Source: a virus
Virus record (IMG/VR): IMGVR_UViG_3300033545_000001
Coordinates: 55,393-119,392 of that record
Length of the DNA stretch: 64,000 bases
Reading direction: 5' to 3' (one strand)
Shown: one piece after another, positions 23,661-63,663 of the stretch
Layout of the letters: the number at the start of each line of letters is the position of its first letter
Position numbering within the stretch: the stretch's first letter is position 1
Position numbers and translations under genes: made by a program
The notes under the pieces: generated by a model
Told to the model about the DNA's origin: nothing
Databases searched by the model: none
The model's input: the letters and a program-made list of their open reading frames with translations, nothing else

Positions 23661-23693
23661 CCGATTGTTTAGATAGACTTTAAGGAGACTAAA

Positions 23694-28639: not shown

Positions 28640-28916
28640 GGTTGAAATTAGATGCCCTGAAGGGCCTCAGCGATTATTCATGAAGATGAGGCTGAGTGAT
28701 AATGCTGATGAGCGTCCTCATATAATTCAAGGTCTCAACTTGATGGAACTTGCTTGTTCCGATTGTGCCAGAGCTTACCGCAAAAGAGATCCAGAAATAT
28801 TCAGAATACTTCATCGTTATGCCATAGATGGAGATCTGGTAGAAAGCATAGTACAGTATAAAGATGGATCTGAAGTGATTAACAGCATATGGGATGTAAC
28901 TGCCGATTATAAGTAG
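28632..28916 (+). CDS. small Cys/His protein
   Basis: 'RCP...ACSDC...H'. Confidence 0.55.
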   Translation: MPEVEIRCPEGPQRLFMKMRLSDNADERPHIIQGLNLMELACSDCARAYRKRDPEIFRILHRYAIDGDLVESIVQYKDGSEVINSIWDVTADYK

Positions 28917-28970
28917 GAGAGGCCGTGAGCCTCAGCTTACGCACTTTCTGTATAGTGAGGTTTATACAAT

Positions 28971-29579
28971 ATGGCACAGCTCTTCTCAGGGAATGACGAA
29001 GCCTTCTCTCTGATTGCGGCTTCTATTCTTAACGGAACTACTGGCGCTGAAGCTCAGCCCATCTATGGTATCCGTACAGGAACCCTATCTGCTAACATCA
29101 GCCAGTTTGACAATACTGGTAATGACCGTGTGCTATCGCACTGGGTATGGTCAGACTACGCCACAGTGACAATTGAGTCTGGATACATTCCATGGGCAAT
29201 GTATGCTAACATTACTGGTACATCTATTACATCTTCAGGTACAGCTGGCGCTGACTACTACGCCTTGCCTCTCTGGGACTACAATTCGCTGAACCAGCCA
29301 ACTCAGTCAATGCGTCTACGTTCTGCTTCTAAGGATTCCCTTGGACAAGTTCGTACATTTGACATGATTCTTTACAAGGTTCAGTTCAACCCAATCAACT
29401 TCACAGGTCCAGCTTACAAGACAGGTCTTACCTTCTCTTGCTCTGGAACTGCCTTGTACTCTCAGTTTGACGAGGCTGGAAACACTCTAACCAACCTATG
29501 TATTGGTAGAATCGTTTCTTCTCCTGGACAGGCTGGATTCTCAACAACAGCCTCTTACGGTCAAGGTCTTTCTACCTGA
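28971..29579 (+). CDS. major tail tube protein
   Basis: 202 aa upstream of chaperones and tape measure, followed by GNRA-loop hairpin. Confidence 0.75.
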   Translation: MAQLFSGNDEAFSLIAASILNGTTGAEAQPIYGIRTGTLSANISQFDNTGNDRVLSHWVWSDYATVTIESGYIPWAMYANITGTSITSSGTAGADYYALPLWDYNSLNQPTQSMRLRSASKDSLGQVRTFDMILYKVQFNPINFTGPAYKTGLTFSCSGTALYSQFDEAGNTLTNLCIGRIVSSPGQAGFSTTASYGQGLST

Positions 29580-29602
29580 TCTTAGTCAGATGCTCGTGGG
29601 AT

Positions 29603-38086: not shown

Positions 38087-38136
38087 TCCGATTGTTTATA
38101 TGATTTTACTCCTAGAGTCCATGGAGACCAGCATAC

Positions 38137-43832: not shown

Positions 43833-43866
43833 TGATTGCACCGATTGTTCTTGTGAGGGAGGCAGA

Positions 43867-48810: not shown

Positions 48811-48996
48811 TTGGATGAATATACAGTGGAGGGATTAATGGATAATTACGGTAAGTTCTCAGAGTGTCTTGAGGAAGCTGATCGAGACTTTAGAACTGAT
48901 GTTTCCTATGCGGTTGCAGTAGCCAAGGCTGCTAGAACCATTGCTGCTAAGAGATCTATGTGGCAGTCACGTCGCTTGACAGACAGCCAAAGCTAG
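48811..48996 (+). CDS. small hypothetical
   Basis: Short ORF; ATG 48838 follows GGAGG. Confidence 0.4.
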   Translation: MDEYTVEGLMDNYGKFSECLEEADRDFRTDVSYAVAVAKAARTIAAKRSMWQSRRLTDSQS

Positions 48997-49005
48997 TGGT
49001 AGAGT
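48976..49005 (+). promoter_or_regulatory. sigma70-type promoter, leaderless geometry
   Basis: TTGACA-N18-TAGAGT, 6 nt before ATG 49012. Confidence 0.6.
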
Positions 49006-49011
49006 AGATGC

Positions 49012-50610
49012 ATGTCTCTACCTGACATTCGTAGACTCTTACCATCCGAACGCAACCAGTTGGCAGATAAGGTCAGAGACCTTCCTGACTTCAAGTTGCC
49101 CGAGCTGAAGTATTTCAACAGTTCCCCTTGTGCTCAACATACGGAAGTAGTTGTAGGCTGTAGGAACTGTGGCATTAAACCACGAGCCCACCAGCGTCAA
49201 GCCGCTGCCTGGGCTTATTTGCGCACTAAAGTCCTTGTAGCTGATCAGACTGGTACAGGGAAGTCCACTATTCTTGCCCTTCTTATTGCCATGCTTAAAG
49301 AGTCTGGGCAATTGGAAGACGGAAAGGTGCTTCTTGTGTGCAGAGCAGCAGCATTGCGTCAGTGGACTACAGAGCTTAATCGTATGCTACCTATGATCAA
49401 GACTGTTGCAGCTACAGGAACAGCTTCAAAGCGCCTGAAGATCATGCGATCTGATTGGGAAGTGATGGTTATTTCCCGAGAGACATATGTCAAGGATCAC
49501 GAAGCTTTTAACCATATTGACATTGTGGCATTGCTTTGTGACGACGTTGATTCTCTGGCTAACAGAGGCAACCAGATCTCTGTACGTCTGAAACAGCTGG
49601 CTAATCATTGCCGCTATGTATGTATTGCTAATGCTACTCCACTTTCCAAGCGTCTTGAGCAGCTGCATTCTGTTATGGAGCTGATCGGAGGAAGAGAATT
49701 CCTTGGAGGAGTGACACAGTTCAAGAACACCTATATTCAACAGGAAAAGATTCAAATGCCAGTCAGAGGTGGTCGAATGATGACTACTATGAAAACTAGA
49801 GGCTATAAAAATCTGAATCAGTTGAAGTCTCTTATACGTCCTATGGTTATTCGTCGTACAGCAGACCAACTTGCTGATGTGGATATGCCAGCTATTTCTA
49901 CTTCTACAGTGTGGCTTGATCTGCATCCTGCACAACGTGCTAAGTACAAAGAGATACAAGCAGGCATTCTCAAGATTATCAAAGAAGGCCGCATTGCTGA
50001 GATCAAGCAGCTTGAGGCTATCACAGTATGGATGAAAGCTGCTGCTACCTGTACCGGTCTTCCAGCACTTGGGGAAGATGACGGGCCAGGAGCTTCGTCA
50101 AAGCTGGATTGGATTATGGACAAGCTTGAAGGTGATCTTTCTGAAGAGAAGGTTGTTATCTTCATTCATAATAAGAGCATGGTGTTAGCAGCTAAAGATA
50201 GAATGGATGCTGCTGGAATAAAAGCTGTTGTTGTTTCTGGTATGGACAGCAATCCTACTCGTAGAGCTGAAGCTATTCAACAGTTCTGGGATGATCCTGA
50301 ATGTAAGGTGCTTATAGGTACTAGCGCTCTTCAATCATCTCTTAACCTTCAAGTGTCGAGACATCTGATTATGGCAGATACTTTGCATAATCCTGCTTCT
50401 ATTCAACAGCTTGCAGGACGTGTTCAGCGTGTCGGTTCACAATATCAGACTGTATATGTTCACCATCTATTGACTAGAGATACCATTGAGGAAGGTTTCC
50501 TAGAAAAGCTTGAGATTGAATCTGCTCTCATGGATCATATGTGGGATTCTTCAAGTGAGATCTTCCAGGCTCTTTCCCCAGAACAGATGATGAGGTTGAT
50601 TATATCATGA
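49012..50610 (+). CDS. SNF2-family helicase
   Basis: 'ADQTGTGKS', 'NATP', 'IRR', 'LNLQ', 'Q..GRVQRVG'. Confidence 0.85.
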   Translation: MSLPDIRRLLPSERNQLADKVRDLPDFKLPELKYFNSSPCAQHTEVVVGCRNCGIKPRAHQRQAAAWAYLRTKVLVADQTGTGKSTILALLIAMLKESGQLEDGKVLLVCRAAALRQWTTELNRMLPMIKTVAATGTASKRLKIMRSDWEVMVISRETYVKDHEAFNHIDIVALLCDDVDSLANRGNQISVRLKQLANHCRYVCIANATPLSKRLEQLHSVMELIGGREFLGGVTQFKNTYIQQEKIQMPVRGGRMMTTMKTRGYKNLNQLKSLIRPMVIRRTADQLADVDMPAISTSTVWLDLHPAQRAKYKEIQAGILKIIKEGRIAEIKQLEAITVWMKAAATCTGLPALGEDDGPGASSKLDWIMDKLEGDLSEEKVVIFIHNKSMVLAAKDRMDAAGIKAVVVSGMDSNPTRRAEAIQQFWDDPECKVLIGTSALQSSLNLQVSRHLIMADTLHNPASIQQLAGRVQRVGSQYQTVYVHHLLTRDTIEEGFLEKLEIESALMDHMWDSSSEIFQALSPEQMMRLIIS

Positions 50611-51341
50611 TTGAAGACAAGTATAAAAGCCTTATAGACAATCATATTGCTCTAGCTATCAGTATAGCGTTGGGAGTGTACAATACAGCTCCTCATGCTT
50701 TGGAACTGGAAGAGTTGAAAGCTATTGCTTTCTTTGGTCTTTGTGACGCGGCTGATCGTTGGCCAAGTTATTGCGAGAAGAAGGGCTATGACGCATCAGC
50801 AATTCAGTATTTCACAAAGTACTCTTCTCTCCGCATTCGTGGAGCTATTTATGATAGGTTGAGAAGCAATGATTGGGCTACTAGGTCTCTGAGAGAGAAG
50901 TCCCGTAAAATCAATCTGGCTAATATTAAAGCAGATGGACTTGACCTGAGTAATGCAGAGTTGGCAGAGATCACAGGATTGACAGAAAAGGAAGTCCGTG
51001 ATACACTTACTGGGATGTCTCGTGCTCCTGTATCGCTTGACAGTGTAGTGGCTCCATGGTCTGAGGACAGCACCAGCCCGACTTCCAATGGAAGATCCCA
51101 GGTGGCTGATTCTCAAGACACGGAAAGTACTGTAGCTGTCAATGATTTGCTGAAGACCTTCGCGGATGCTGTGAAGGCTCTTCCCTTAGAGCAGAGGCTA
51201 GTTATAGTATTGCACTATCATCAAGGTTTGGAGCTTAAGAAAGCAGCAGCCTTGATGGGAGTGACTGATGCTGTGTTAAGTTCATATCACACATCAGCAG
51301 TGATAAAGCTCTTAGAAAGTCTTCAGGAAGCAGCAGTTTAA
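50607..51341 (+). CDS. RNA polymerase sigma factor, FliA/WhiG (sigma28) family
   Basis: 'RIRGAIYDRLRSNDWATRSLR' matches FliA region 2.4; region 4 'LPLEQRLVIVLHY'. Confidence 0.88.
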   Translation: MIEDKYKSLIDNHIALAISIALGVYNTAPHALELEELKAIAFFGLCDAADRWPSYCEKKGYDASAIQYFTKYSSLRIRGAIYDRLRSNDWATRSLREKSRKINLANIKADGLDLSNAELAEITGLTEKEVRDTLTGMSRAPVSLDSVVAPWSEDSTSPTSNGRSQVADSQDTESTVAVNDLLKTFADAVKALPLEQRLVIVLHYHQGLELKKAAALMGVTDAVLSSYHTSAVIKLLESLQEAAV

Positions 51342-51394
51342 CTACTTCGAGTTGGGTCCGATGACTTATATAGTACAGCTAATTTTGGAGAGAA

Positions 51395-51748
51395 ATGGTA
51401 CTGCCAGCATTTACTTTTGAGTCAGTAGAAGAACTTCCAGCAGTGGAGATTCCGGCAGACTCACGTCAGTTCAGGGCTTTGCACAACCCTTGGACTCCTT
51501 TAGAGTTGAATGGTTTGTGGGAAATGCCCACTCAAACAGCTTTAATTTATGTAGCTCTTGGTGATAATACCTGTGCAGACTACATTAAGGTTCTTCAGAC
51601 AATGCTTGAGGTTGAAGTTACTGGGGAACTGGACTGGAATACAGTCACGGAACTTCAGCGAAGATCTCTTATCGCACCGGATGGTGAATGGAATGCCGTG
51701 ACTGTTAGAGGCATTCAGGCAGCACTCAATTCAGGAATATTATTCTAA
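51395..51748 (+). CDS. peptidoglycan-binding-like protein
   Basis: Repeated 'G.W...T..LQ' and 'DGEW..VTVRGIQAALN'. Confidence 0.45.
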   Translation: MVLPAFTFESVEELPAVEIPADSRQFRALHNPWTPLELNGLWEMPTQTALIYVALGDNTCADYIKVLQTMLEVEVTGELDWNTVTELQRRSLIAPDGEWNAVTVRGIQAALNSGILF

Positions 51749-51872
51749 TAGAGTTCCTCCTTTGGGAGGATCGCCATCCGGGCAAACGCTACCACGATGG
51801 CCAAAGCTGAGAATAACGCCCCTTTCAATTGGTCTGGAAAGGGGCGCTCAGTGTCTTCAATTAAGGAAGGTT

Positions 51873-52127
51873 ATGGCTAATAGACTTATAGTGACTCTTC
51901 ATCTCAAGAACGGGATCACTCATATGAGTGATCCTATTGAGATGGATGAGGAAGAAGTAGAACAGATCATGAGAGATGTTCAAGAAGCTCTCGAAGGTGC
52001 TGAAGGCATACTTCAATTTACTTGCAATGAGAAAACAATATTGATTAGAAATGATGCTGTTATGTCATCTACTTTTGATTATAGAGAAGTAATTGAAGAC
52101 ATTTCTAGCCATTTTGCAGGAGCTTGA
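51873..52127 (+). CDS. small acidic hypothetical
   Basis: ATG after AAGGAAGG. Confidence 0.6.
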   Translation: MANRLIVTLHLKNGITHMSDPIEMDEEEVEQIMRDVQEALEGAEGILQFTCNEKTILIRNDAVMSSTFDYREVIEDISSHFAGA

Positions 52128-52128
52128 T

Positions 52129-52347
52129 ATGCCAGCATATGATTACAGGTGTAAGGATTGTGATAGTCCTTACACCTTACAAGGAAAGATTACAGAGGAC
52201 GTTCCAATATCTGATTGTCCTCAGTGCAATTCTGACAATGTGTACAGGGTATTTTCCCCAGCACACATCAAGTTCAATGCTACTGGCTTTTACACTATTG
52301 ACAGCAAGCATGAGCAAACCTATGTGACGGAAATCAGAGGAGAGTAG
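52129..52347 (+). CDS. FmdB-family zinc ribbon protein
   Basis: 'MPAYDYRCKDC...CPQC...F...GFY..D'. Confidence 0.85.
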   Translation: MPAYDYRCKDCDSPYTLQGKITEDVPISDCPQCNSDNVYRVFSPAHIKFNATGFYTIDSKHEQTYVTEIRGE

Positions 52348-52517
52348 TGAGCAGCAAGAACTGGCTTGAAGAAGAGCTGGAAGGTTATGATGATATTGAC
52401 ATTGAAGAAGAAGTCATTGACCATCGTGATTCCAACATTCTCAAAGCCGAGCGCCATCAAAGAAAACTCCGTCGCCAGAGAGAAGCAGAGAAGCGTGAGC
52501 AAGAAGAAGCTTCATGA
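52347..52517 (+). CDS. 56-aa acidic/basic protein
   Basis: GTG overlapping previous stop, SD GGAG; below ORF-track cutoff. Confidence 0.5.
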   Translation: MSSKNWLEEELEGYDDIDIEEEVIDHRDSNILKAERHQRKLRRQREAEKREQEEAS

Positions 52518-52712
52518 CCTGAGAATTAAGGTCAGTAGTTGTAGATCACTTATGGCTTATGCGCCAGCGCAGGATTTAAGCGAATTAAAGCTTAAAGAAG
52601 GCTGGTGGGTAACTGTTGTTGGGGAATGTGAGAAACCTCACATTGCTTATGTTAATAACTATGACGAGAATCTTAATCTGTGGTTCTTTATGGTGGAGAA
52701 GGAGCCTTTGCA

Positions 52713-53744
52713 GTGAGTGGGCACACTAAATGGTCAGATGTAAAGGCGGCAAGAGGGTATGTGTCTAAGCCCAGGATTCAAACTAAGAAGACTACTTACA
52801 CCATGGATTATCCTGAGGCAGTAAAGTTTGCTGAAACTCAGATGGAAGTTTATTGGCTGCCAACGGAAATCAATTTGGAAAAGGATGTTCAGGATGTCCG
52901 AGTCAATCTTACGGATGCTGAGCGTCATGGCGTGGTTACGACACTTAAGCTCTTTACGCTGTACGAACTCCTTGTTGGTAATGAGTACTGGGGCGGGCGC
53001 GTCAAGCGTGCATTCCCGCGTCCAGATATCGAATTCATGGCCACTACATTCGGGTTTGTGGAGATTGGAATCCATGCACGATTCTACAACCGTCTGAATG
53101 AAGTCATGATGCTGGACACTGACGAATTTTATGAATCTTATGTAGATGATCCTGATCTCAAGGCTCGTATGGATTTCGTCACAGAGGTACTGACAGATGA
53201 CAATCTTCCTGTAGCACTAGGTGCTTTCTCCATGCTGGAGGGTGCTGTTCTCTATAGTTCTTTCGCATTCCTCAAGCACTTCCAATCCCAGGGGAAGAAC
53301 AAGCTTAAGAATGTATGTTCTGGTATCAACTTCTCAGTACGCGACGAGAATCTTCATGCTCTTGCTGGATCGTGGCTTTACAACACTCTGATGAGTGAGA
53401 TGGAAGCGTTGGGACAGCTCCCTGCTGAAAAGCTCCATGAGATCACAGTATCTCTTGAGGGAGTAGCTCAGTTAGTTTATGAGCATGAAGAGCGTATCAT
53501 CGATATGATTTTCGAGAATGGTCCTATTGAAGGACTTGAGCCAGAAGATATGAAGACTTTCGTCAAGTCTCGTATAAATCTATGCATGAGAAATCTGAAT
53601 TTGGAAGAGCCTTTCGAGGTTACTTCCAATCCTGTAGCTGACTGGTTCTACAAGGGAATCAATAGCTACCAATTTCATGACATGTTTGCTGGAGTTGGAT
53701 CAGAGTACAATAGAAATGTATCTGCTGATGGTTTTGAGTGGTAA
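52713..53744 (+). CDS. nrdB: ribonucleotide reductase class I beta subunit
   Basis: 'WLPTEI', 'E...HARFY', 'EG..LYSSF', 'RDENLH'. Confidence 0.92.
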   Translation: MSGHTKWSDVKAARGYVSKPRIQTKKTTYTMDYPEAVKFAETQMEVYWLPTEINLEKDVQDVRVNLTDAERHGVVTTLKLFTLYELLVGNEYWGGRVKRAFPRPDIEFMATTFGFVEIGIHARFYNRLNEVMMLDTDEFYESYVDDPDLKARMDFVTEVLTDDNLPVALGAFSMLEGAVLYSSFAFLKHFQSQGKNKLKNVCSGINFSVRDENLHALAGSWLYNTLMSEMEALGQLPAEKLHEITVSLEGVAQLVYEHEERIIDMIFENGPIEGLEPEDMKTFVKSRINLCMRNLNLEEPFEVTSNPVADWFYKGINSYQFHDMFAGVGSEYNRNVSADGFEW

Positions 53745-54297
53745 TAAATTATGTCCTGACTGCCAAGAACACAAAGATTTCACAGAGTTCGGCAGTAATA
53801 AGGCTAGGTCAGATGGAGTTGCTTCTTATTGTAGATTGTGCTACTCCAAAAGGCAGCGAGATATAAGGACTAGCCGTAAAAATAATCCAGAGGCTCCTCC
53901 AGAAAGTAAAAAGTGTCCTCAGTGCAATACTGTAAGGCACAGGGAAGACTTTACAAAGTCTTCTAATAATGTTGGAGGCCTTTCTGGATGGTGTAGAGAA
54001 TGCTCGTCTATAAATCTTATACTTAGAAAGTATAAACTGTCTAAAGAAGAGTATGACAGGCTTTTAACAGCTCAAGAGTATAAATGTGCCATAAGAGGGT
54101 GTGACAGGCGCCCAGAAGCAGTAGACCATGACCACTCTTGTTGTCCAGGAGTTGTAAGTTGCGGTAAATGTGTCAGAGGGATACTGTGCAGCAATTGCAA
54201 CAGAGGCCTAGGGTATTTTTCAGATAGTGTGCCTAGGCTACATGGAGCTATAGAATACCTAAATCTGTCAACCGACTGCTGTTCCGATTTTAGATAG
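53677..54297 (+). CDS. endonuclease VII-family homing endonuclease (true start probably near 53730)
   Basis: Two 'CxxC...F...CxxC' repeats, then 'VDHDHSCC...CGKCVRGILCSNCN'. Confidence 0.85.
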   Translation: MTCLLELDQSTIEMYLLMVLSGNKLCPDCQEHKDFTEFGSNKARSDGVASYCRLCYSKRQRDIRTSRKNNPEAPPESKKCPQCNTVRHREDFTKSSNNVGGLSGWCRECSSINLILRKYKLSKEEYDRLLTAQEYKCAIRGCDRRPEAVDHDHSCCPGVVSCGKCVRGILCSNCNRGLGYFSDSVPRLHGAIEYLNLSTDCCSDFR

Positions 54298-54335
54298 GCA
54301 GCTAGATAAACCCTTCCCTTTTTCAGGAGTGAACT

Positions 54336-56057
54336 GTGGTAAATAAGTATGAGACTCTATCGGAAGAGCGTAAGAGTTTGCAGGCCAGAGGGGAAGTACC
54401 TGAATGGTATACCACAGCTGGCTATCAACTCTTTACAGAGAAGTACACTCTTCCAGGCCAGAGTTTGAAGGATCGTTACGAGGATATTGCGGTTACAGCA
54501 GGATGTCTTGCTGATGAGATGTATTTCAAGCTGAAGCCTGAAGGATTCTATTCTTGGTCAGAAGTATTCTTTGATATGATATGGAAGGGATGGCTTTCTC
54601 CTTCCACTCCAGTATTGGCAAACCTAGGCACTGATAGAGGAATGCCTGTATCCTGCTCAGGCGGAGTTGTAGAGGACTCTGTAGCAGGATTCTATAAGAG
54701 TAGGCTGGAGACAGCTCTTCTCACTAAGAATGGCTTCGGCACCTCAGCTTATATGGGTGAGATTCGTCCTAGGGGATCTGCTATTTCCAGAGGCGGCCAA
54801 GCTTCTGGAACAGTTCCTGTTATCAAGGGATTTGTTCAGGATATGTCTGACGTATCTCAAGGCTCTACCCGTAGAGGTTCATGGGCTGGATATATCGAAG
54901 TAGAGCATGAAGATTTTGACGAAATCATTGACCATCTAAATAGCAGTCCAGACAACTTTAATATGGGTTGGAATATCACTGACAATTTCCTTAAGAAGCT
55001 TAATGCTGGTGACAAAGAAGCTATTCGTCGTTATCAGAAGATTATGAAGACTCGTACCGTTACAGGTAAGGGGTATCTTTATTTTGTAGACAAGGCCAAT
55101 GCCTTAGCTCCTATTGAAATGGCTGAACATGGCCTTAAGATTCATGCTTCCAATTTGTGTTCTGAGATTGCCCTGCCTTCTGATAAGGATCACACGTTCA
55201 CTTGCGTACTTTCCTCACTTAACGCAGCAAAGTATGATGAGTGGATTGACGCTGATTTTGATGTGGTAGCAGCTTCAACTGTGTTCTTAGACTGTGTGGC
55301 TGAAGCATTCATGCGACAGGCTAGAAATGTTGAAGGTCTGGAGAAGGCAGTAAGATTCACAGAGAAGTCTCGCGCCTTGGGACTTGGTGTCCTTGGATTC
55401 CATACTTATGTGCAGTCTCATGGCTGGGCTATGGACTCCATGCCAGCTAATACTTTCAACAATCTGCTCTTCAGCAGGATCCAAAAAAGGGCTCTAGAGG
55501 CCTCGCAGGAGATGGGTAGGGTAGCAGGTACCCCCGAGTGGTGCGAGGGCCGCAGAAACCTAACCCTTCTGGCTGTAGCCCCTACTATGAGCACTGCCAC
55601 GATATGTGGAGGAGTCTCAAATGGCATCGAGCCAGTAGTAGCCAATGTATACAATCAGGGATCTGCTGCTGGAGAGATTGAGCGTATTAATCCTGTGCTT
55701 CTTGATATTATGAAAGAGCGAGATGTATACAGTGAAGACACTATTTGGGATATGATAAATCATCAGGGATCTATCCAGCACGTAGGCTGGCTTAGTGATA
55801 ATGAAAAGAGAGTATTCAGAACAGCGTTTGAAATTGATCAATTTGTACTGTTAAGATTGGCATCCAATCGTCAAAGGTACATTGATCAGGGCCAATCTCT
55901 CAATCTGTTCTTCGCAGCCGATGAAGATCCTAAGTATATCAGCAAGGTGACCAGGGCAGCAGCGGAAGACCCCCGTATCAAGGCGTTGTACTACCAGCGT
56001 TCACAAGCAGGAGTTCAGGCCAGCAAAGATGAGAGCTGTATAGCTTGCGAGGGCTGA
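54336..56057 (+). CDS. nrdA: ribonucleotide reductase class I alpha subunit (no ATP cone)
   Basis: 'PVSC', 'SNLCSEI', 'APT', 'DQGQSLN', 'LYY', C-terminal CIAC. Confidence 0.93.
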   Translation: MVNKYETLSEERKSLQARGEVPEWYTTAGYQLFTEKYTLPGQSLKDRYEDIAVTAGCLADEMYFKLKPEGFYSWSEVFFDMIWKGWLSPSTPVLANLGTDRGMPVSCSGGVVEDSVAGFYKSRLETALLTKNGFGTSAYMGEIRPRGSAISRGGQASGTVPVIKGFVQDMSDVSQGSTRRGSWAGYIEVEHEDFDEIIDHLNSSPDNFNMGWNITDNFLKKLNAGDKEAIRRYQKIMKTRTVTGKGYLYFVDKANALAPIEMAEHGLKIHASNLCSEIALPSDKDHTFTCVLSSLNAAKYDEWIDADFDVVAASTVFLDCVAEAFMRQARNVEGLEKAVRFTEKSRALGLGVLGFHTYVQSHGWAMDSMPANTFNNLLFSRIQKRALEASQEMGRVAGTPEWCEGRRNLTLLAVAPTMSTATICGGVSNGIEPVVANVYNQGSAAGEIERINPVLLDIMKERDVYSEDTIWDMINHQGSIQHVGWLSDNEKRVFRTAFEIDQFVLLRLASNRQRYIDQGQSLNLFFAADEDPKYISKVTRAAAEDPRIKALYYQRSQAGVQASKDESCIACEG

Positions 56058-56058
56058 C

Positions 56059-56087
56059 TTGACAGTGGGACATGATTGGGGTAGTCT
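56059..56087 (+). promoter_or_regulatory. sigma70-type promoter, leaderless geometry
   Basis: TTGACA-N17-TAGTCT, 6 nt before ATG 56094. Confidence 0.7.
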
Positions 56088-56093
56088 CTAATC

Positions 56094-56486
56094 ATGTCCC
56101 GACATGAGAGGTACCTTAGCCGTGCTCATCAAGAAGCTGAAGCTTCTGAACACCCGCGATGGTATCTAGGGGCTGTCCTTGTACGAGGTGGTTCCATAGT
56201 CGCTACGGCTCACAATGTGAGACGTAATTCCCCTTATGTGACTCAGGGTGCTCCAGGTACATCTTTGCATGCGGAACAGGCTGTTATTCGTAAAGTGTTC
56301 TATCAGGCAGATAGAGCTGAAGGTACTACTCTGTATGTTGTACGAGTCAATAATCTTGGACAACGTCGCCTTGCTCGTCCTTGTCATAGATGCTACAAGG
56401 CAATTGTAGCATCAGGCATAAAGACAGTAGTGTACTCTGTTGACGATGCTGCGTTTGGTATGGAAAGAGTTTACTCGAACACTTGA
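56094..56486 (+). CDS. zinc-dependent CMP/dCMP-type deaminase
   Basis: HAE and PCxxC motifs. Confidence 0.85.
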   Translation: MSRHERYLSRAHQEAEASEHPRWYLGAVLVRGGSIVATAHNVRRNSPYVTQGAPGTSLHAEQAVIRKVFYQADRAEGTTLYVVRVNNLGQRRLARPCHRCYKAIVASGIKTVVYSVDDAAFGMERVYSNT

Positions 56487-56511
56487 CAGCAGCTGGCAGA
56501 TGTGCTAGTAT
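56483..56511 (+). promoter_or_regulatory. sigma70-type promoter, leaderless geometry
   Basis: TTGACA-N17-TAGTAT, 6 nt before ATG 56518. Confidence 0.7.
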
Positions 56512-56517
56512 CAGATC

Positions 56518-56763
56518 ATGGAACTCGACAACTGCCCCAAGTGTGGACGCTCTTTTGATGACGGCAAGGGCTATCGTCTGGAGACTTCTGTAGAGATACG
56601 TGGAATGTATGACGGCACAGCCTTTTGGGCTGATGATATTCATAATGGCGGCTGCGGATGGGCTTGGCACAGATTTCCTGAAAATGAGAAATATTGGGGC
56701 AATCTTCGCAGTAGGATTCAACCACATCTCGATAGTTATATAGAGACTAACTACAATAAGTAG
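56518..56763 (+). CDS. small hypothetical (CxxC)
   Basis: 'CPKC...YDG..FW...CG..WHRF'. Confidence 0.65.
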   Translation: MELDNCPKCGRSFDDGKGYRLETSVEIRGMYDGTAFWADDIHNGGCGWAWHRFPENEKYWGNLRSRIQPHLDSYIETNYNK

Positions 56764-56772
56764 TTTATGTAC

Positions 56773-56882
56773 CTGTTTCGGTTACGCAGCGAGCCTGTCC
56801 TTGCTGCGTCCCATTCTCTCATACTAGAGTAATGGATAAGTTGGACCGAACAGTGGACGTTGCAGCAGGAGCGAGACGTCCA
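56773..56882 (+). ncRNA. structured RNA: three-way junction plus hairpin
   Basis: Stems 56773-83/56844-53, 56784-93/56800-09, 56811-19/56826-35, 56854-61/56875-82. Confidence 0.5.
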
Positions 56883-56885
56883 TAT

Positions 56886-56963
56886 GCGCGAGTATCCCCG
56901 CGATCTTATAAGTCGTGCATTGTAGGGTAATGGTGCATGTGGGTTCAAGCCCCACCTCGCGTA
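56886..56963 (+). tRNA. non-canonical D-armless tRNA-Ile(TAT)-like
   Basis: Acceptor GCGCGAG/CTCGCGT, anticodon loop CTTATAA, T arm GTGGG-TTCAAGC-CCCAC, no D arm. Confidence 0.65.
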
Positions 56964-56978
56964 CTGGAAGGAGTCGAA

Positions 56979-57623
56979 TTGAGGGAGGACGATTGCAGCA
57001 AGTACAGAATATGGACAAGTCCAGAAAATGAGGACTTGCTCCGTGAAGCAGTTATTAAGTGTTTAAATTACCGAGAAGTGGTCACCTACATAGGTCTCTC
57101 TTCTCGTGGCAGTACTGTAACTGTGCGTAAGCATATAGAGAGATTAAAATTAGATACTTCTCACTGGATTAAGCCTAAAACTAAAAATAGTTTTACAGAT
57201 GAGGAATTTACTCAAGTTTGGCAGAGTTCTTCGTCTCTAGCTGAGTGCAGCAGGAGATTAGGAATTTCTCCCACCTCCTCCACAGTAAGAGAGATATCTA
57301 ACAGACTTTCCCTTTCCAGAGATCATATGACGCATAACTATAGTAGGAGTGCTAAAAAGCCACTAGAGGACATTCTTATAGAATCTGACTACAGGCCCTA
57401 CTCTTCTAACTTGAAGAAGAGAATTCTTAACGAAGGTCTACTGGATAACAAATGCTCTATTTGTGGAATTTCTGACTGGCTGGAACAGCCCCTGTCTTTG
57501 GAGCTGGACCACATTAATGGAAACCCAGCCGATAACAGAATAGAAAATTTAAGAATACTATGTCCGAATTGTCACGCTCAGACTCCTACTTATCGAGGTA
57601 GGAACATAGGCAGAAATAAATAG
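56979..57623 (+). CDS. HNH homing endonuclease
   Basis: 'LELDHING...DNRIENLRILCPNCH'; TTG after AAGGAG. Confidence 0.88.
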   Translation: MREDDCSKYRIWTSPENEDLLREAVIKCLNYREVVTYIGLSSRGSTVTVRKHIERLKLDTSHWIKPKTKNSFTDEEFTQVWQSSSSLAECSRRLGISPTSSTVREISNRLSLSRDHMTHNYSRSAKKPLEDILIESDYRPYSSNLKKRILNEGLLDNKCSICGISDWLEQPLSLELDHINGNPADNRIENLRILCPNCHAQTPTYRGRNIGRNK

Positions 57624-57632
57624 GGGAATAAC

Positions 57633-57911
57633 ATGGCAGCAGGTAATCTACCTAGCTTTACATCGTCTCGTACTGCGGATGATCCTGAAGAAAAGTATGA
57701 GACTCACAATGAATATACTTGGACAGGAGACTCTGACGTCAACCGTAAACTGAAGAGTATCACTGTGTGGAATGACTTCAAGCCAGACCATAAGCTTGAG
57801 TACATTGCATCAAGTAAGACTGTAAGAGTTCTAGGTTCAGCAGCAGCTCCTCTGAACCTGCATATTCACCTGACTAATCAGCTTGTACGTATTGCCGGTC
57901 AATATAGTTAA
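57633..57911 (+). CDS. hypothetical
   Basis: 92-aa ORF with SD. Confidence 0.6.
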   Translation: MAAGNLPSFTSSRTADDPEEKYETHNEYTWTGDSDVNRKLKSITVWNDFKPDHKLEYIASSKTVRVLGSAAAPLNLHIHLTNQLVRIAGQYS

Positions 57912-57935
57912 GTGACAGGGGACACAATCCCCGAT

Positions 57936-58008
57936 GGCTGTGTAGCCCAATGGAAGAGGCGCCGGATTCAAGTCCCGGTCAGTGAGGGTTCGAGTCCCTC
58001 CACAGCTA
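57936..58008 (+). tRNA. tRNA-Leu(CAA), short variable loop
   Basis: Cloverleaf, loop TTCAAGT. Confidence 0.85.
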
Positions 58009-58009
58009 C

Positions 58010-58969
58010 GTGAAGAAACATAGAGTAGTAGACGCGTCTCCTGGTGCTGGAGGAATGCTCAAAGGCTTCCTAGACTCCGGGCGATTTGATGTGTCTGGAT
58101 ATTATTCAGAAATAGACTCATATGATGAGCAGACTTTAGTAGCCAATCTGCCAAGTTTTAGACAGAAGCCTCCATGTGATGTACTTGTAGGATCTTTTTT
58201 TGATCCCTCTCTAGAGAGTGATCAATACTACAGGAATATCATGAGAGAGTTGAAGCCAGCTATCTCTTTAGTAGAGATTCCAGCCTCAGGATATAAGTGG
58301 TCTAACCCTCCAGGATCTTGTTTCGGCTATGCTCATGAATGGTACGTCCTTGATGCAGTAGACTATCTTGTTCCTCAGCACCGTAAACGTTGTTGGGTTG
58401 TAGCCATTGATAGAAGCCTAGTAGGACCTAATTTCAAGATTGGTGCTCCTGCTCCCAGAAGTCATCCACTTACTGTGCGTGATGCTATAGGAGATGTTCC
58501 TTTTCAAGCTAAGTTTGTCCCCTGGAACCTGGCTAATGAACATTCAGGGATTTCTATGCATAGTATACTTACGCCTACAGTTAATAGGGCAAGGTATGAT
58601 ACTATTCCTCCAGGAAGTTCTGCTGATGCCATTCCAACTGATATGAGACCTTCTTACAGAAAAGATGACATAGGCCCCTCTGATATTTATGGTAGGCTTA
58701 TGTGGGACTATCCTGCTAAAGAGATTACTCCTAGAATAGATGCCAATTCAGGAAGGTTTATTCATCCTCAATGGGTTGATATTGACAGTACTGATAATGT
58801 AAACAGACTTATATCTCCACTAGAGGCTGCCAGGTTGCAGACTTTTCCAGACAGTTACGTGTGGATAGGAAATAGACATTCTGTGCTCAGGCAGATCGGC
58901 CAAGCTACGCCTCCAGCTCAAGCTATGTGCTGGGCTCATTATTTAGCCGACCTACTTGACAACGAGTAG
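58010..58969 (+). CDS. degenerate C5-cytosine methyltransferase homolog
   Basis: 'PGAGG', 'VPQHRKR', 'EAARLQTFPD', 'QIGQATPP'; catalytic PC and ENV motifs missing. Confidence 0.75.
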   Translation: MKKHRVVDASPGAGGMLKGFLDSGRFDVSGYYSEIDSYDEQTLVANLPSFRQKPPCDVLVGSFFDPSLESDQYYRNIMRELKPAISLVEIPASGYKWSNPPGSCFGYAHEWYVLDAVDYLVPQHRKRCWVVAIDRSLVGPNFKIGAPAPRSHPLTVRDAIGDVPFQAKFVPWNLANEHSGISMHSILTPTVNRARYDTIPPGSSADAIPTDMRPSYRKDDIGPSDIYGRLMWDYPAKEITPRIDANSGRFIHPQWVDIDSTDNVNRLISPLEAARLQTFPDSYVWIGNRHSVLRQIGQATPPAQAMCWAHYLADLLDNE

Positions 58970-58984
58970 CAGGTGTGTTAGAGT
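58956..58984 (+). promoter_or_regulatory. sigma70-type promoter
   Basis: TTGACA-N17-TAGAGT. Confidence 0.65.
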
Positions 58985-59024
58985 ATAACTAAGAGAAACG
59001 GCCTATTATGAGGAGGACGTACTA

Positions 59025-59216
59025 ATGAGTTATGTAGATGAATACCGCAAGATGGTTTCCACCAGCAATGTGATTGTTCAGGCTAGTAATGACACTCCTT
59101 TCAAGGTTTTCTCTTACCCTTCCCCTGAAGATGGCTGGGACATGTGGCAGAAGGATTACGAGACTGTAATTTTCACCGAAGATGACGATTGGCTAGAGAA
59201 TGACTGTGCAGGTTAA
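59025..59216 (+). CDS. small acidic hypothetical
   Basis: SD GAGGAGG. Confidence 0.55.
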   Translation: MSYVDEYRKMVSTSNVIVQASNDTPFKVFSYPSPEDGWDMWQKDYETVIFTEDDDWLENDCAG

Positions 59217-59736
59217 CAACCCACTTGCTGCTGCCAACCCTGGAGATATTGGTGTTACCAGTATCTCTGGGGATGTTGGCAAGCTCATTACTTTTGGTGA
59301 GTGGCTTAATGGCAACAAGGACGACAAGTATGACCATGCTTTCATTTATGTAGGTAATGGTCAAATAGTAGAAGCTGAGCCTGGAAAGCAAGGTGCTTGG
59401 CTTGGTAATGTTTCAGAGTACATGGATGGCAGACCTTTGGCATTTTCTACAGGCAAGCTTGCTCTAGATGATGGTCAAGGTCAGAAAATAGCAGATATTG
59501 CTCTCAGTCTTGTAGGTACCAAGTATTCATTCCTTGATTATTTCTCTATTGCTGCACACAGATTCCACATGCCTATTCCTGGCTTGAAGAGTTATATTGC
59601 TTCTAGTAAGCATATGATCTGTTCGCAATTGGTGGATTATGTTTACCAGCAGGCTGGATTCAAGCTGTTTACAGACGGCCGCTGGGATGGATACGTTACT
59701 CCAGCAGCACTTGCTGAGAGAATTGGCGCAAAGTAG
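59200..59736 (+). CDS. permuted papain-like NlpC/P60 (YaeF/YiiX) hydrolase
   Basis: 'PGDI', 'YDHAFIY...EA', later 'ICSQLV...Y', 'VTP'. Confidence 0.85.
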   Translation: MTVQVNNPLAAANPGDIGVTSISGDVGKLITFGEWLNGNKDDKYDHAFIYVGNGQIVEAEPGKQGAWLGNVSEYMDGRPLAFSTGKLALDDGQGQKIADIALSLVGTKYSFLDYFSIAAHRFHMPIPGLKSYIASSKHMICSQLVDYVYQQAGFKLFTDGRWDGYVTPAALAERIGAK

Positions 59737-59744
59737 GATGAGAA

Positions 59745-59990
59745 ATGGCTTACACAAAGTTCTTCCCCCGTGATACTAAGGTCATGGCGCAGGATTATAA
59801 CAATTATGAAGAGAGATCGAACAAGGCGCGTCAAGTCCTCGACTTCGAGCCTCTTGTACGAGTCATTGCTGATGGGGATGCACGAATGACAATGCCTGAG
59901 CTTCTTGCTGAGGCTGTCGCTGCTGAACTCAACTCAGCTTACGACAAGGGCTTTTACGATTCTAAGCATCAGCCTAAGGATATGGATTAG
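59745..59990 (+). CDS. hypothetical
   Basis: 81-aa ORF. Confidence 0.6.
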   Translation: MAYTKFFPRDTKVMAQDYNNYEERSNKARQVLDFEPLVRVIADGDARMTMPELLAEAVAAELNSAYDKGFYDSKHQPKDMD

Positions 59991-60145
59991 TGAAGCGTAT
60001 TAAAGTACGTATATCCCAATGGGATGGTTATGATTCCAAGAGAGTACTATACGCTGGAATTAGTACGTTGATAGGACTAGGGAGCGTCTTTGTGGGCGCT
60101 CCTATAGTTTTAGGTATGTGGGTTGGCTTGCTGATTTATACGTGC

Positions 60146-60174
60146 TTGACAGCCATCGCGTAGCATGCTAGTCT
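60146..60174 (+). promoter_or_regulatory. sigma70-type promoter
   Basis: TTGACA-N17-TAGTCT. Confidence 0.65.
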
Positions 60175-60209
60175 TACTACATCAGCCCGACAAGGGAAGG
60201 ATACAGAAT

Positions 60210-60353
60210 ATGGCTAAGATTCCTGATAAGCCACCAGCAAATCGCTCGGAAAGAGCTGCTGAAGAGGCTATTGCTCAAGGTGGAGGTCCTGCTCAAGGTG
60301 GCGCTCCTGCTGGAAAGCCTCAACCAGTTCCTCCGCCTCGTCCACATCCTTAA
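60210..60353 (+). CDS. Pro/Gly-rich small peptide
   Basis: ATG downstream of AAGGA. Confidence 0.45.
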   Translation: MAKIPDKPPANRSERAAEEAIAQGGGPAQGGAPAGKPQPVPPPRPHP

Positions 60354-60372
60354 TTAAAGATAAGGGGCAAAC

Positions 60373-60723
60373 ATGAAGGATTTTATTTCAGACCACATAG
60401 GCGGTCTTCTGCTGACAGGAGCTGCTACAGTACTTGTGCTGGCAACTGGCGGCTATGATGTTGTACTGCATTCTACTCAGCGTACAGTGACTGCAACTGT
60501 TACTAAGACATGGATTCAGTATTCTGATAATCGTACTATCAATCTCATTGGCACTAACGAAGGTGTTTTTGAGGATGCAGACAGTCCATTCTATGATAAG
60601 TTTAATTCGTCTGACTACTTCAATGAACTTACTGTAGGTAAGACTTACACGTTCGATGTGACTGGTTGGCGCATTCCGATTCTTTCAGCTTGGCCTAACA
60701 TCGTATCCTGTCAAGACTGCTAG
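60373..60723 (+). CDS. membrane-anchored/secreted protein
   Basis: N-terminal hydrophobic helix; 'GKTY...GWRIP...PNI'. Confidence 0.7.
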   Translation: MKDFISDHIGGLLLTGAATVLVLATGGYDVVLHSTQRTVTATVTKTWIQYSDNRTINLIGTNEGVFEDADSPFYDKFNSSDYFNELTVGKTYTFDVTGWRIPILSAWPNIVSCQDC

Positions 60724-60726
60724 AAC

Positions 60727-60821
60727 TTGACAAGTGGAGGAAGACATGGTAGACTTGGGAAATCCAAGGCAAGATGGTCCTCAACTAAGGACTTGACAGC
60801 ATCCGATAGTTCTGCTAGAAT
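60727..60821 (+). promoter_or_regulatory. tandem sigma70-type promoters for the tRNA array
   Basis: TTGACA-N17-TAGACT (60727) and TTGACA-N17-TAGAAT (60793); the second has CCGAT in its spacer. Confidence 0.7.
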
Positions 60822-60934
60822 AGTCTTACAGGCGAGAACCTCTGGTTCTTAACCTGGCTGGGACCGGCAGGAAGCTGGACCTAGAGACTTGGTACTAGTA
60901 TTCTTTTGGTTACGCTAGTACGTGAAGTCAGGCA

Positions 60935-61007
60935 TGCGGGGTACGCTAACGGTACGCGGGAAGGCTCATAACCTTCTGTACGTGGGTTCGAATCCCATCC
61001 CCCGCTA
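60935..61007 (+). tRNA. tRNA-Met(CAT), initiator-like
   Basis: Loop CTCATAA, 1:72 mismatch. Confidence 0.8.
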
Positions 61008-61023
61008 CGTAATAATTTAATAA

Positions 61024-61095
61024 CTGGGTGTGGTGTAAAGGTAAGCATGGCTGCTTTGGATGCAGGCGGATGGGGTTCGAGTCCCCGCTCCCGGA
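61024..61095 (+). tRNA. tRNA-Pro(TGG)
   Basis: Cloverleaf, loop TTTGGAT. Confidence 0.85.
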
Positions 61096-61127
61096 CGTAA
61101 CAGTTTCTATGATTTTAATATTATAAT

Positions 61128-61198
61128 CTGGGTATCGTATAGTGGTAAGACGTCTGTTTTGGGAACAGATGACGGAAGTTCGATTCTTCCTACCCGGA
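61128..61198 (+). tRNA. tRNA-Pro(TGG)
   Basis: Cloverleaf, loop TTTGGGA. Confidence 0.85.
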
Positions 61199-61210
61199 CG
61201 TAGTAACTAT

Positions 61211-61282
61211 GGCCTATTCGTATAGTGGCAAGTACCCCAGACTTCCAATCTGGCGACACCGGTTCGAATCCGGTATAGGTCT
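61211..61282 (+). tRNA. tRNA-Gly(TCC)
   Basis: Cloverleaf, loop CTTCCAA, U73. Confidence 0.9.
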
Positions 61283-61371
61283 CTATGAGAAAGATACCAG
61301 CGATAAAAAAGTGTTCTCATTGTGAAGAAGAGTTTAGTACTCTCAATTTAATCCAAAGTCTAACTAAATAT

Positions 61372-61442
61372 GTCTTAGTGGTGTAGCGGTAACATACTAG
61401 CTTGCCAAGCTGGTGTCACGGGTTCGAATCCCGTATAAGACT
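61372..61442 (+). tRNA. tRNA-Gly(GCC)
   Basis: Cloverleaf, loop TTGCCAA, U73. Confidence 0.9.
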
Positions 61443-61490
61443 CGCAGTATCAAGGAAGTTAAGTAGTGCCAAGAGGCGAAAGCCTCGAAT

Positions 61491-61563
61491 GTATCCAAAG
61501 CTGACTCGGATCAAGCGCTTGGTTGAAGCCCAGGAGAACTCAGTTCGACTCTGAGTGGATGCA
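61491..61563 (+). tRNA. tRNA-Phe(GAA)
   Basis: Cloverleaf, loop TTGAAGC. Confidence 0.8.
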
Positions 61564-61576
61564 CGCAGTAACTGAT

Positions 61577-61651
61577 GGTGGCTATAGCTTAGACGGATAA
61601 AGCGTCTGACTGTGACTCAGAAGACCGAGGGTTCGAGCCCCTCTAGTCACC
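61577..61651 (+). tRNA. tRNA-His(GTG)
   Basis: Loop CTGTGAC, G-1:C73. Confidence 0.9.
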
Positions 61652-61667
61652 CTTATAAACTTCATAT

Positions 61668-61742
61668 GCCTCTGTAGCTCAGCGGATAGAGCACCCGGCT
61701 ACGAACCGGGGTTTTGCGGGAGTTCGATTCTCTCCAGGGGCA
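61668..61742 (+). tRNA. tRNA-Arg(ACG)
   Basis: Cloverleaf, loop CTACGAA. Confidence 0.9.
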
Positions 61743-61773
61743 CTCCTCTTGCCAGGGACTCACAATTAAATAT

Positions 61774-61844
61774 GCCGGATTCGTCTAATGGTAGGGCCTT
61801 TGTTTTACACACAAATGGCGGGGGTTCGATTCCCTCATCCGGTA
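61774..61844 (+). tRNA. tRNA-Val(TAC)
   Basis: Cloverleaf, loop TTTACAC. Confidence 0.88.
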
Positions 61845-61845
61845 C

Positions 61846-61939
61846 GCAAGGGTATAGTGTAACAGCACGCCAGTCATCGGGACTGGTAGAGCCAGTCATC
61901 GGGACTGGTAGAGCCAGTAAAGTCTGGCTGCCCGTGCCA
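61846..61939 (+). ncRNA. tRNA-like RNA copy 1 with duplicated anticodon-type arm
   Basis: Acceptor AAGGGTA/TGCCCGT-G-CCA; 22-nt tandem repeat GCCAGTCATCGGGACTGGTAGA. Confidence 0.65.
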
Positions 61940-61941
61940 AT

Positions 61942-62015
61942 CTCTAGGTAGCTTAGTAGGTTAAAGCCTCCGTCTGATAAGCGGAAGACCGGTGGTTCGA
62001 GTCCACCTCTAGAGA
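61942..62015 (+). tRNA. tRNA-Ile(GAT)
   Basis: Cloverleaf, loop CTGATAA. Confidence 0.9.
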
Positions 62016-62144
62016 CGCTGCCCTAGCCTGAGGCGTATTAATAGCACATCAGGGAGACCAGTAATGCTGGTGAGCCTGTTGGATAGCATTAAAAGAGTAG
62101 TTATTTCTACTCAAGGTTAGCTGAGAGTAAAATCTCAGCGTCAT

Positions 62145-62217
62145 GCCAGCGTAGCCCAACGGTAGAGGCCTCTGACTTAGAATCAGATTGTTGTAGGTTC
62201 GAATCCTATCGCTGGTA
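62145..62217 (+). tRNA. tRNA-Leu(TAG), short variable loop
   Basis: Cloverleaf, loop CTTAGAA. Confidence 0.88.
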
Positions 62218-62218
62218 C

Positions 62219-62247
62219 TTGACAGTCTAGAAGATAGATGCTAGACT
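62219..62247 (+). promoter_or_regulatory. sigma70-type promoter, leaderless geometry
   Basis: TTGACA-N17-TAGACT, 6 nt before ATG 62254. Confidence 0.7.
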
Positions 62248-63592: not shown

Positions 63593-63663
63593 GCAGAGGA
63601 TAGTGTAAAGCGCACTCCAGTCATCGGGACTGGCAGCTCCGGGGTAGCGTCCGGTCCTCAGCA
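63593..63663 (+). ncRNA. tRNA-like RNA copy 2
   Basis: GCAGAGGA/TCCTCAGC acceptor, GTGT/GCAC D stem, CCAGTCATCGGGACTGG arm, CCGGG-GTAGCG-TCCGG T arm. Confidence 0.65.

Follow-up and report, generated by a model that had tools for sequence, protein, structure and literature searches.

Does a phage-encoded sigma factor of the FliA type read the short CCGAT boxes that stand ahead of many genes in the same genome? The question is raised by a 64,000-nucleotide (nt) stretch of viral DNA, hereafter the window, which forms the right-hand 64 kb (positions 55,393 to 119,392) of the 119,392-bp virus record IMGVR_UViG_3300033545_000001. A gene at 50607-51341 (+) encodes a sigma-28-like (group 3) sigma factor of 244 amino acids, recognized through profile, alignment, and fold matches, and the word CCGAT recurs in the gaps between genes of the window. 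We put a probability of about 0.72 on the reading that the FliA-like sigma factor reads the CCGAT boxes as promoters. The boxes behave as sigma promoters would, because they are strand-specific, lie in gaps, often follow terminators, hold conserved positions in relatives, and have no -35 element. Promoter function, the factor that would read the boxes, the start site, and the timing are inferred. The sequence also appears to have the classical layout of a phage sigma system, with a phage-borne sigma gene, a host-type promoter, and a distinct motif before the virion genes.

Twelve CCGAT boxes are intergenic, each on the coding strand and 25-68 nt ahead of a start codon. Between positions 12000 and 55000, a block delimited after inspection, 12 of the 20 plus-strand copies fall in gaps that make up 4.19% of the sequence (binomial p 2.7e-12), and none of the six minus-strand copies does. 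On the plus strand of the whole window, half of all copies (14/28) lie within the 7.08% that is intergenic, and CCGAT ranks first of all 5-mers, followed by TAGAC. Four of the 1024 possible 5-mers occur within the sigma-28 octamer GCCGATAA, and the top gap-enriched 5-mer is the core of that octamer. When 70-nt upstream windows oriented by gene were compared genome-wide, CCGAT ranked 10th of 1024 (15/95), and the nine words that outranked it were ribosome-site words plus TAGAG, ATAGA, and GATAG. A sequence-only reading of this DNA had listed 13 CCGAT sites upstream of genes, together with TCGAT variants at 7038 and 30711. Twelve of those CCGAT sites are in place, but the one given as 20628 begins at 20629 and lies within an open reading frame (ORF; 20043-21167). 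Both TCGAT words exist, but neither is among the 12 best flank scores, and TCGAT was rejected as a variant class since it is not enriched (14 sense versus 11 antisense).

The coordinates given for each box, all on the plus strand, run from CCGAT (-14 to -10) through the predicted transcription start (+1). Boxes precede a ParB-like gene (12618-12633, 41 nt before the gene at 12659), a DUF6582 gene (14224-14239, 32 nt before 14256), the portal gene (16933-16948, 33 nt before 16966), the head maturation protease gene (20002-20017, 41 nt before 20043), the head decoration gene (21171-21186, 25 nt before 21196), and the major capsid gene (22423-22438, 41 nt before 22464), and the capsid gene of the relative G001, introduced below, is also preceded by a box. 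Several boxes come directly after terminator hairpins; the one at 23661-23676, 33 nt before ORF 23694, stands right after the terminator hairpin of the capsid gene (23616-23660). Farther along, boxes are found 68 nt before ORF 28971 (28903-28918; PHROG 36442), 49 nt before ORF 38137 (38088-38103, one base past a stop codon), and 26 nt before a tail-spike-like gene at 43867 (43841-43856). The box at 51358-51373 begins 17 nt past the stop codon of the sigma gene itself and lies 37 nt before ORF 51395, in front of a block that leads to the gene for the small subunit of ribonucleotide reductase (RNR). The box at 54284-54299 lies 52 nt before the large RNR subunit gene at 54336 and falls in the last codons of an endonuclease-like frame (53638-54297). 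The remaining copy, at 20629-20644, is 586 nt inside the protease ORF 20043-21167, and its flank score of 3.31 exceeds the 95th percentile (1.50) of in-ORF CCGAT copies; it may be an internal promoter, an assignment that we regard as uncertain.

At the ParB-like gene, a perfect 13-bp hairpin (12618-12662) pairs the ribosome site of gene 12659, and the predicted start lies within the 5' arm of that hairpin. This ribosome site scores 0.21 for being unpaired when the RNA reads through from upstream and 0.62 when it begins at the box, a behavior that would resemble a T4-like translation lock. Hairpins that hide ribosome sites were rejected as a general feature of the boxes, since 12618 is the one site of 12 with a clear case and the others show a modest one or none.

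The anatomy of the element was read from 40 aligned sites in three genomes. Between -44 and -29, every column carries 0.13 bit or less, and in a search for a -35 element by 3- and 4-mers no word survived multiple testing (the best, ATTA, was seen 9 times against 2.5 expected, p 7e-4, with 256 words), which bears out the earlier remark that a consistent -35 element is missing. In the accessible part of PMC12784957, the -10 element of Pseudomonas aeruginosa sigma-28 is numbered (-15)GCCGATAA(-8), and this numbering places CCGAT at -14 to -10 and the predicted +1 at the purine 10 nt past its T. That 10th base is G in 23 of the 40 sites and +2 is A in 21, and the sequence-only reading, in expecting starts 8-10 nt past CCGAT, had arrived at a compatible distance. 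The match to the sigma-28 -10 element is confined to its core, as -15 is not G and -9/-8 are not AA: position -9 is free (T20, G11, A8, C1), -8 is mostly purine or T (A17, G11, T11, C1), -7 is T in 26/40, and -6 to -1 are poor in C. The word ATAGAC was tried as a spaced second element and rejected, its distance from CCGAT varying from 0 to 12 nt; it is best read as the putative initiation region plus a likeness to the phage's host-type -10, TAGACT.

The best NCBIfam family for the sigma ORF is TIGR02479 (FliA_WhiG), with an E value of 3e-33 over positions 1-223 of the 224-position profile. The FliA, WhiG, and PRK07670 (SigD-type) models follow at 101, 98, and 89 bits, all far under their own cut-offs, and the next subfamily, SigB/F/G, reaches only 37 bits (E 3e-9). 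Among the Pfam domains, r4_2 (34.5 bits) and r4 (24.2 bits) score above their cut-offs and r2 (16.7) and r3 (19.1) below them, both of the latter regions being covered by full-length alignments. A profile built from 23 family members gave full-length matches to sigma-28 of Aquifex (E 4e-33) and Escherichia coli (3e-30) and to WhiG (5e-30). The AlphaFold model of the ORF (mean predicted local distance difference test score, pLDDT, 78.5) has helices for domains 2, 3, and 4, no region 1.1, and a disordered 3-4 linker (residues 143-168), and its top fold matches are a SigD model, sigma-28/FlgM, P. aeruginosa sigma-28, and WhiG. Because the best family, sequence, and fold matches are all to FliA/WhiG/SigD, yet the scores stay under cut-off, the product is, on its sequence, a divergent group 3 sigma factor of the sigma-28 (FliA/WhiG/SigD) lineage. 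Relative to cellular sigma-28, it carries a nine-residue insertion, W52-G60 (50760-50786), between regions 2.2 and 2.3, in which W52, Y55, and C56 are invariant in 37 family members. Ancestry from WhiG, FliA, or SigD is not separated by the NCBIfam scores or by a sequence search of the PDB (WhiG E 1.7e-16, FliA 2.8e-16). The proposal that a developmental sigma factor had been repurposed and might affect host development is accordingly unsupported, as nothing distinguishes WhiG from FliA/SigD ancestry.

DNA-contact residues were transferred through pairwise alignments, and the chain numbering agrees with the residue names in the papers. For the E. coli sigma-28 complex, the accessible part of a preprint (10.1101/2020.01.02.893370) lists 11 residues at the -10 element, five of which are identical in the phage protein (E. 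coli/here: R58/R51, R74/R76, R84/R86, R94/R96, and R98/R100). In the P. aeruginosa sigma-28 open complex, as described in the accessible part of PMC12784957, Y76 stacks on the flipped A-11, D66 touches A-11, R97 reads the extended -10, and R101 meets the backbone. The first three are retained here as Y72, D62, and R93, and R101 is replaced (E97). Five arginines, R51, R76, R86, R93, and R96, are invariant in the 37 family members. The sequence-only reading had matched region 2.4 to FliA/WhiG and had noted DAVLSS in place of ESRVSQ in the region 4.2 helix; both hold up, with region 2.3-3.0 aligning with E. coli FliA and the helix D221-A-V-L-S-S226 facing FliA E218-S-R-V-S-Q223. Within region 4.2, the two residues with which P. 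aeruginosa sigma-28 reads -35 bases have given way to others (S224->A222, Q228->S226), E. coli R220 is replaced by V223, and K208 is retained as K211. The replacement of residues that read the -35 agrees with the missing -35 element.

Relatives allowed the boxes to be followed beyond this genome. The sigma family is large: of 1149 candidates, 58 proteins match at E <= 1e-5, identity is 35-99% for 40 of the 58, and several members carry the Joint Genome Institute (JGI) label FliA. Relatives are encoded by 130 metagenome stretches, many from contigs of 120-140 kb, and 80 loci were kept; the duplicate loci L016, L019, and L033 and loci shorter than 8 kb were omitted from the locus analyses, L087 was also omitted from the tree and column comparison, and in high-GC loci plus-strand ORFs were filtered by G+C content at third codon positions (GC3). 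In G001 (126 kb), whose sigma and capsid proteins are 48% and 62% identical to those of the window, CCGAT ranks first of the 1024 5-mers in 70-nt upstream windows (19/117), and in its virion block 13 of 25 plus-strand copies fall in the 4.16% that is gap, as against 0/14 on the minus strand. In G003 (125.6 kb; sigma 41% identical), CCGAT ranks third, behind two ribosome-site words (20/121). Locus L002 (capsid 72% identical) has boxes in three gaps, one of which, flank included, matches the box before ORF 28971 and its G001 counterpart. Co-directional gaps of nine more low-GC loci hold 15 sense and 2 antisense copies, and there the boxes stand at the same two gene boundaries with diverged flanks. 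As a separate observation, the word ATACTTACCTACACTT occurs 10-45 nt upstream of the CCGAT box before an ORF of ~360 amino acids in seven low-GC relatives (L022, L032, L034, L041, L052, L067, and L073, at about 6590-6640).

The closest isolate is the cultured Microbacterium phage Magritte (OR553905), for which sequence identity is 44.8% in the capsid protein and 26.6% in the sigma-like gp47. The scan of its genome took in 90,000 of 133,228 bases, in which [C/T]CGATATCCC occurs nine times on the plus strand and not once on the minus strand, and the [C/T]CGATATCCCTG sites lie at record positions 5339, 11980, 18360, 18888, 21965, 29540, 43604, 68580, and 70405; T at -14 occurs among them. An ATG stands exactly at the sigma-28-predicted +1 in three of the nine sites, and two of these ATGs coincide with annotated gene starts, those of gene 19, for the scaffolding protein, and gene 98. 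One box lies within the scaffolding gene, 17 nt ahead of an in-frame ATG, and may give rise to a nested scaffolding product. The Magritte pair gp46 (helicase)-gp47 is the counterpart of the gene pair at 49012-51341, and gp47, annotated as 'DNA binding protein', is a sigma homologue. A term search of the accessible text of the Magritte genome note returned no mention of sigma, promoter, motif, repeat, DNA binding, or leaderless.

A different word marks the high-GC relatives. Across 27 high-GC loci, GGTA(G/T)A is enriched (GGTAGA 12 to 2, GGTATA 8 to 1), and in 12 of 20 gap occurrences the distance from the beginning of cGGTA(G/T)A to the start codon is exactly 12 nt; example sites lie in L029:16167-16203, L035:14049-14087, and L061:14241-14390. 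Nearly all sigma-70-family promoters have a flipped A at -11. The high-GC word may represent a diverged class of leaderless promoters in which C-13 and G-12 keep their register and -11 is G. The sigma tree places 11 low-GC rows on one side of a branch (support 90/85), and clade-specific sigma residues concentrate in regions 2.3-3.0. It is conceivable, and we advance it only tentatively, that a sigma-28-derived factor and a -10-only promoter co-diverged in a large unstudied family of ~120-140-kb soil phages, with CCGAT in the low-GC members, YCGATATCCCTG in Magritte, and cGGTA(G/T)A in the high-GC members. We keep co-divergence as a hypothesis because motif, base composition, and phylogeny are confounded in the comparison of high- with low-GC loci. 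Were it true, the family would supply naturally occurring pairs of sigma factor and promoter, orthogonal to one another and often yielding leaderless mRNA, and would be a test case for -10 specificity evolving without help from a -35.

How might such a sigma factor be deployed? A host-type (primary sigma) promoter, TTGACA-18 nt-TAGAGT with TG before the -10, lies at 48976-49005 (+), 7 nt before the ATG of an SNF2-family helicase gene (49012-50610, +; PF00176 95 bits, PF00271 51.5 bits), and the helicase stop codon overlaps the sigma start codon (ATGA). With its promoter 7 nt ahead of the ATG, the helicase-sigma message is probably leaderless. Host-type promoters of the form TTGACA-17/18-TAGnnT that end 7 nt before an ATG occur at 48976, 56059, 56483, and 62219 (+), and several early or middle genes are probably leaderless. 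The looser pattern TTGACA-16/18-TAnnnT has 45 hits genome-wide; its gap copies lie in the left 51 kb and at 48976-62219 of the window, and none lies in the gaps of the virion block.

We propose that the sigma gene would be co-transcribed with the upstream SNF2-type helicase from the promoter at 48976-49005 by the host holoenzyme, and that the sigma protein would then bind host core RNA polymerase. The new holoenzyme would initiate at ~12 promoters in which the -10 box (C-14 C-13 G-12 A-11 T-10, any base at -9, a purine at -8, and T-7) is the sole conserved recognition element, with transcription starting at the purine 10 nt past the T of CCGAT. The boxes would thereby switch on a middle and late programme of virion genes, the ParB-like gene, and the RNR genes, and host-type promoters would serve the early region plus the tRNA and replication side of the genome.

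Several observations count against this proposal. CCGAT as such is not enriched over the whole window on both strands (41 copies versus 48.5 +/- 6.7 in shuffles), and in oriented gaps of the whole genome there are 14 sense and 4 antisense copies against a shuffle mean of 9.7, a count that 218 of 2000 mononucleotide shuffles reach and that is not significant. Intergenic enrichment, which the sequence-only reading had asked of the motif, shows in the rank of CCGAT as the most gap-enriched 5-mer on the plus strand of the window but not in the whole-genome count. The block 12000-55000 was picked after looking, so replication elsewhere outweighs its p-value, and the same test repeats in G001. Leave-one-out flank scores of the boxes average 2.0 versus -6.1 for 167 in-ORF CCGAT copies, a difference inflated by the A+T-richer gaps. 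The TIGR02479 score of 115.4 bits lies below the curated cut-off of 189.6, and 6 of the 11 E. coli -10 contacts differ (H26/S19, R34/T27, Q63/A65, T69/K71, Q73/L75, and R95/E97), among them contacts reported at -12G, -11A, and -9A (Q73->L75, Q63->A65, T69->K71). The 27 high-GC loci, despite the same sigma family, show no enrichment of CCGAT (17 sense, 24 antisense). The boxes at the RNR genes (51358 and 54284) clash with a purely late class; the late regulon proposed earlier agrees with the boxes before virion genes, but it would have to take in the ParB-like and RNR genes.

Four metatranscriptome runs, from four studies that sampled leaf litter and roots, contain contigs over 20562-21691, 22519-23802, and 28888-29587, spanning the decoration, capsid, and ORF 28971 genes at an identity of at least 99% for most pieces. 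They show the presence of the phage or close kin in RNA libraries, contigs being unable to reveal transcript ends, stretches lacking a contig being uninformative, and DNA carry-over being possible. Two of these contigs start upstream of the predicted start at 28917, a further point against the proposed start.

A second sigma-like gene also complicates the assignment, as CCGAT was assigned to the FliA-like factor through its likeness to sigma-28 promoters and another candidate reader is present. This gene, of the extracytoplasmic function (ECF) type, lies outside the window, ~15 kb to the left of its start (G000:C1:39897-40454, +; 185 amino acids), scores 41.6 bits against a TIGR02937 cut-off of 42.9, and is preceded by a TTGACA-18-TATGAT promoter. 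Its homologue in G001 is 38% identical, and none was found in G003 at E <= 0.001; sigma-like genes number three in G001, and G003 has a weak second match (19.5 bits). Together these genes suggest a sigma cascade. The CCGAT promoters might then be read by another sigma factor, either a host factor of sigma-28 type or the phage ECF-like one, with the FliA-like protein having other targets or a helper role, an account to which the changed -10 contacts and the extra sigma-like genes lend some weight. ECF sigma factors depend on a conserved -35, and no -35 is present at the boxes; moreover, CCGAT is enriched in G003, which yielded no homologue of the ECF-like gene at that threshold, and the FliA-like sigma factor is common to all 38 loci examined for it. 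We therefore consider another reader unlikely.

That CCGAT is no promoter at all, and instead marks a regulator-binding site on DNA or RNA, a signal for RNA processing, or an element that controls translation at gene boundaries, would fit the box at 12618, which abuts a hairpin over a ribosome site, and the presence of a ParB-like gene. The element is found in the sense strand only, lacks dyad symmetry, is just 5-8 nt long, and matches the -10 element of a sigma family that the phage encodes; boxes follow terminators, and their fixed distance to Magritte start codons agrees with the predicted +1, which together make a non-promoter role quite improbable. Nor do we give more than slight credence to the idea that the sigma factor chiefly mimics WhiG or FliA to take over a host regulon for development or motility, the phage boxes being secondary. 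Cellular sigma-28 promoters have the same -10 core and could in principle be bound by the phage factor, but they rely on the -35 according to the accessible part of PMC12784957, and the -35 readers are replaced here. The boxes are overwhelmingly ahead of phage genes, and a search of 185,579 prokaryote genomes with one signature pattern for phage-type sigma factors in cellular genomes or prophages left none of eight candidate stretches encoding one. Reading of the CCGAT boxes by the phage's own FliA-like sigma factor is the account that we prefer.

The genome around these elements has a G+C content of 46%, and the plus strand carries nearly every gene of the window. By PHROG and Pfam matches, the gene order runs from the ParB-like (12659), DUF6582 (14256), portal (16966), head protease (20043), decoration (21196), and major capsid (22464) genes through an ORF of 2093 amino acids (30797) and the tail-spike-like gene (43867) to the SNF2-type helicase (49012), the sigma ORF (50607), both RNR subunits, a cytosine methylase, and a block of 19 tRNA genes at the right end. 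No near-identical DNA to the window was found in the phage collection. Leaderless host-type promoters, the Microbacterium relative, and many relatives with 59-73% G+C hint at an actinobacterial host. The narrower suggestion of a Streptomyces host is unsupported: the G+C content is 46%, the nearest isolate infects Microbacterium, and a search of the phage genome found no gene of the WhiB family.

Two further features of the right-hand part stand apart from the proposed promoters. Between the two RNR subunit genes, 53638-54297 (+) is a cysteine-rich open frame of endonuclease VII/HNH type, probably a homing endonuclease. Among the tRNA genes, CCAGTC-CCGAT-GACTGG occurs three times (61876-61902 and 63623-63627, minus strand), two of the copies within a tandem 22-nt repeat; each copy forms a short inverted repeat around CCGAT, and they bear no relation to gene starts.

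Sigma factors are a classic means by which phages time gene expression, but the well-studied cases come from a few model phages. In the present case, promoters with ~8 informative bases appear to be enough for a sigma factor of the flagellar and sporulation lineage to drive the virion programme across an entire family of soil phages. The proposal predicts start sites for ~12 transcription units in this genome and suggests a function for gp47 of the cultured phage Magritte, in which the idea could be put to bench tests. Should the clade-specific motifs prove real, they would provide Actinomycetota with compact pairs of sigma factor and promoter that are orthogonal to one another, and recognition of the -10 element could be studied as a natural experiment. 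We found no published description of a sigma-28-like phage switch in the literature searched, most subscription journals lying outside its coverage, and the system may be a known phage strategy, the sigma switch, in a form not yet described in print.

Among known systems, phage T4 gp55 recognizes the late promoter TATAAATA, consists of a domain-2-like part only, and requires gp33 and the sliding clamp. Like the predicted role of the sigma factor described here, gp55 redirects host polymerase to -10-only late promoters. The gp55 analogy drawn in the sequence-only reading applies to this outcome only, for the present protein is a complete sigma factor that keeps domains 3 and 4, and the promoter motifs are unrelated. 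The promoters of the SPO1, phiEco32, and 7-11 sigma factors have two elements, and those factors belong to sigma lineages different from that of the sigma-28-like phage protein. In the accessible parts of PMC13401047 and PMC4331800, SPO1 gp28 and gp33/34 and the ECF-like sigma factors of phiEco32 and 7-11 are expressed from host-type promoters and then turn on middle or late genes. Sporulation-type sigma factors of Bacillus phages are likewise phage copies of host alternative sigma factors; as described in the accessible part of 10.1101/2021.11.12.468384, they resemble SigF, SigG, or SigE and act on host dormancy, and a term search of that text returned neither FliA nor WhiG.

The closest comparison is with bacterial sigma-28 itself (FliA of E. 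coli and P. aeruginosa, SigD of B. subtilis, WhiG of Streptomyces), which recognizes TAAA-N15-GCCGATAA, is controlled by an anti-sigma factor (FlgM or RsiG), and serves a flagellar or sporulation regulon. The phage factor shares its domains 2, 3, and 4, the conserved arginines for C-13 and the extended -10, and the aromatic residue for stacking on A-11, and the boxes share the CCGAT -10 core and the predicted distance to +1. In contrast to bacterial sigma-28, the phage protein scores under the family cut-off, carries the nine-residue insertion, and has its -35 readers replaced, and its putative promoters have no conserved -35, are free at -9, and prefer T-7, where bacterial promoters have A-9 and A-8. 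It differs, finally, in being encoded by a phage, in having no known anti-sigma factor, and in having virion and nucleotide-metabolism genes as its predicted targets.

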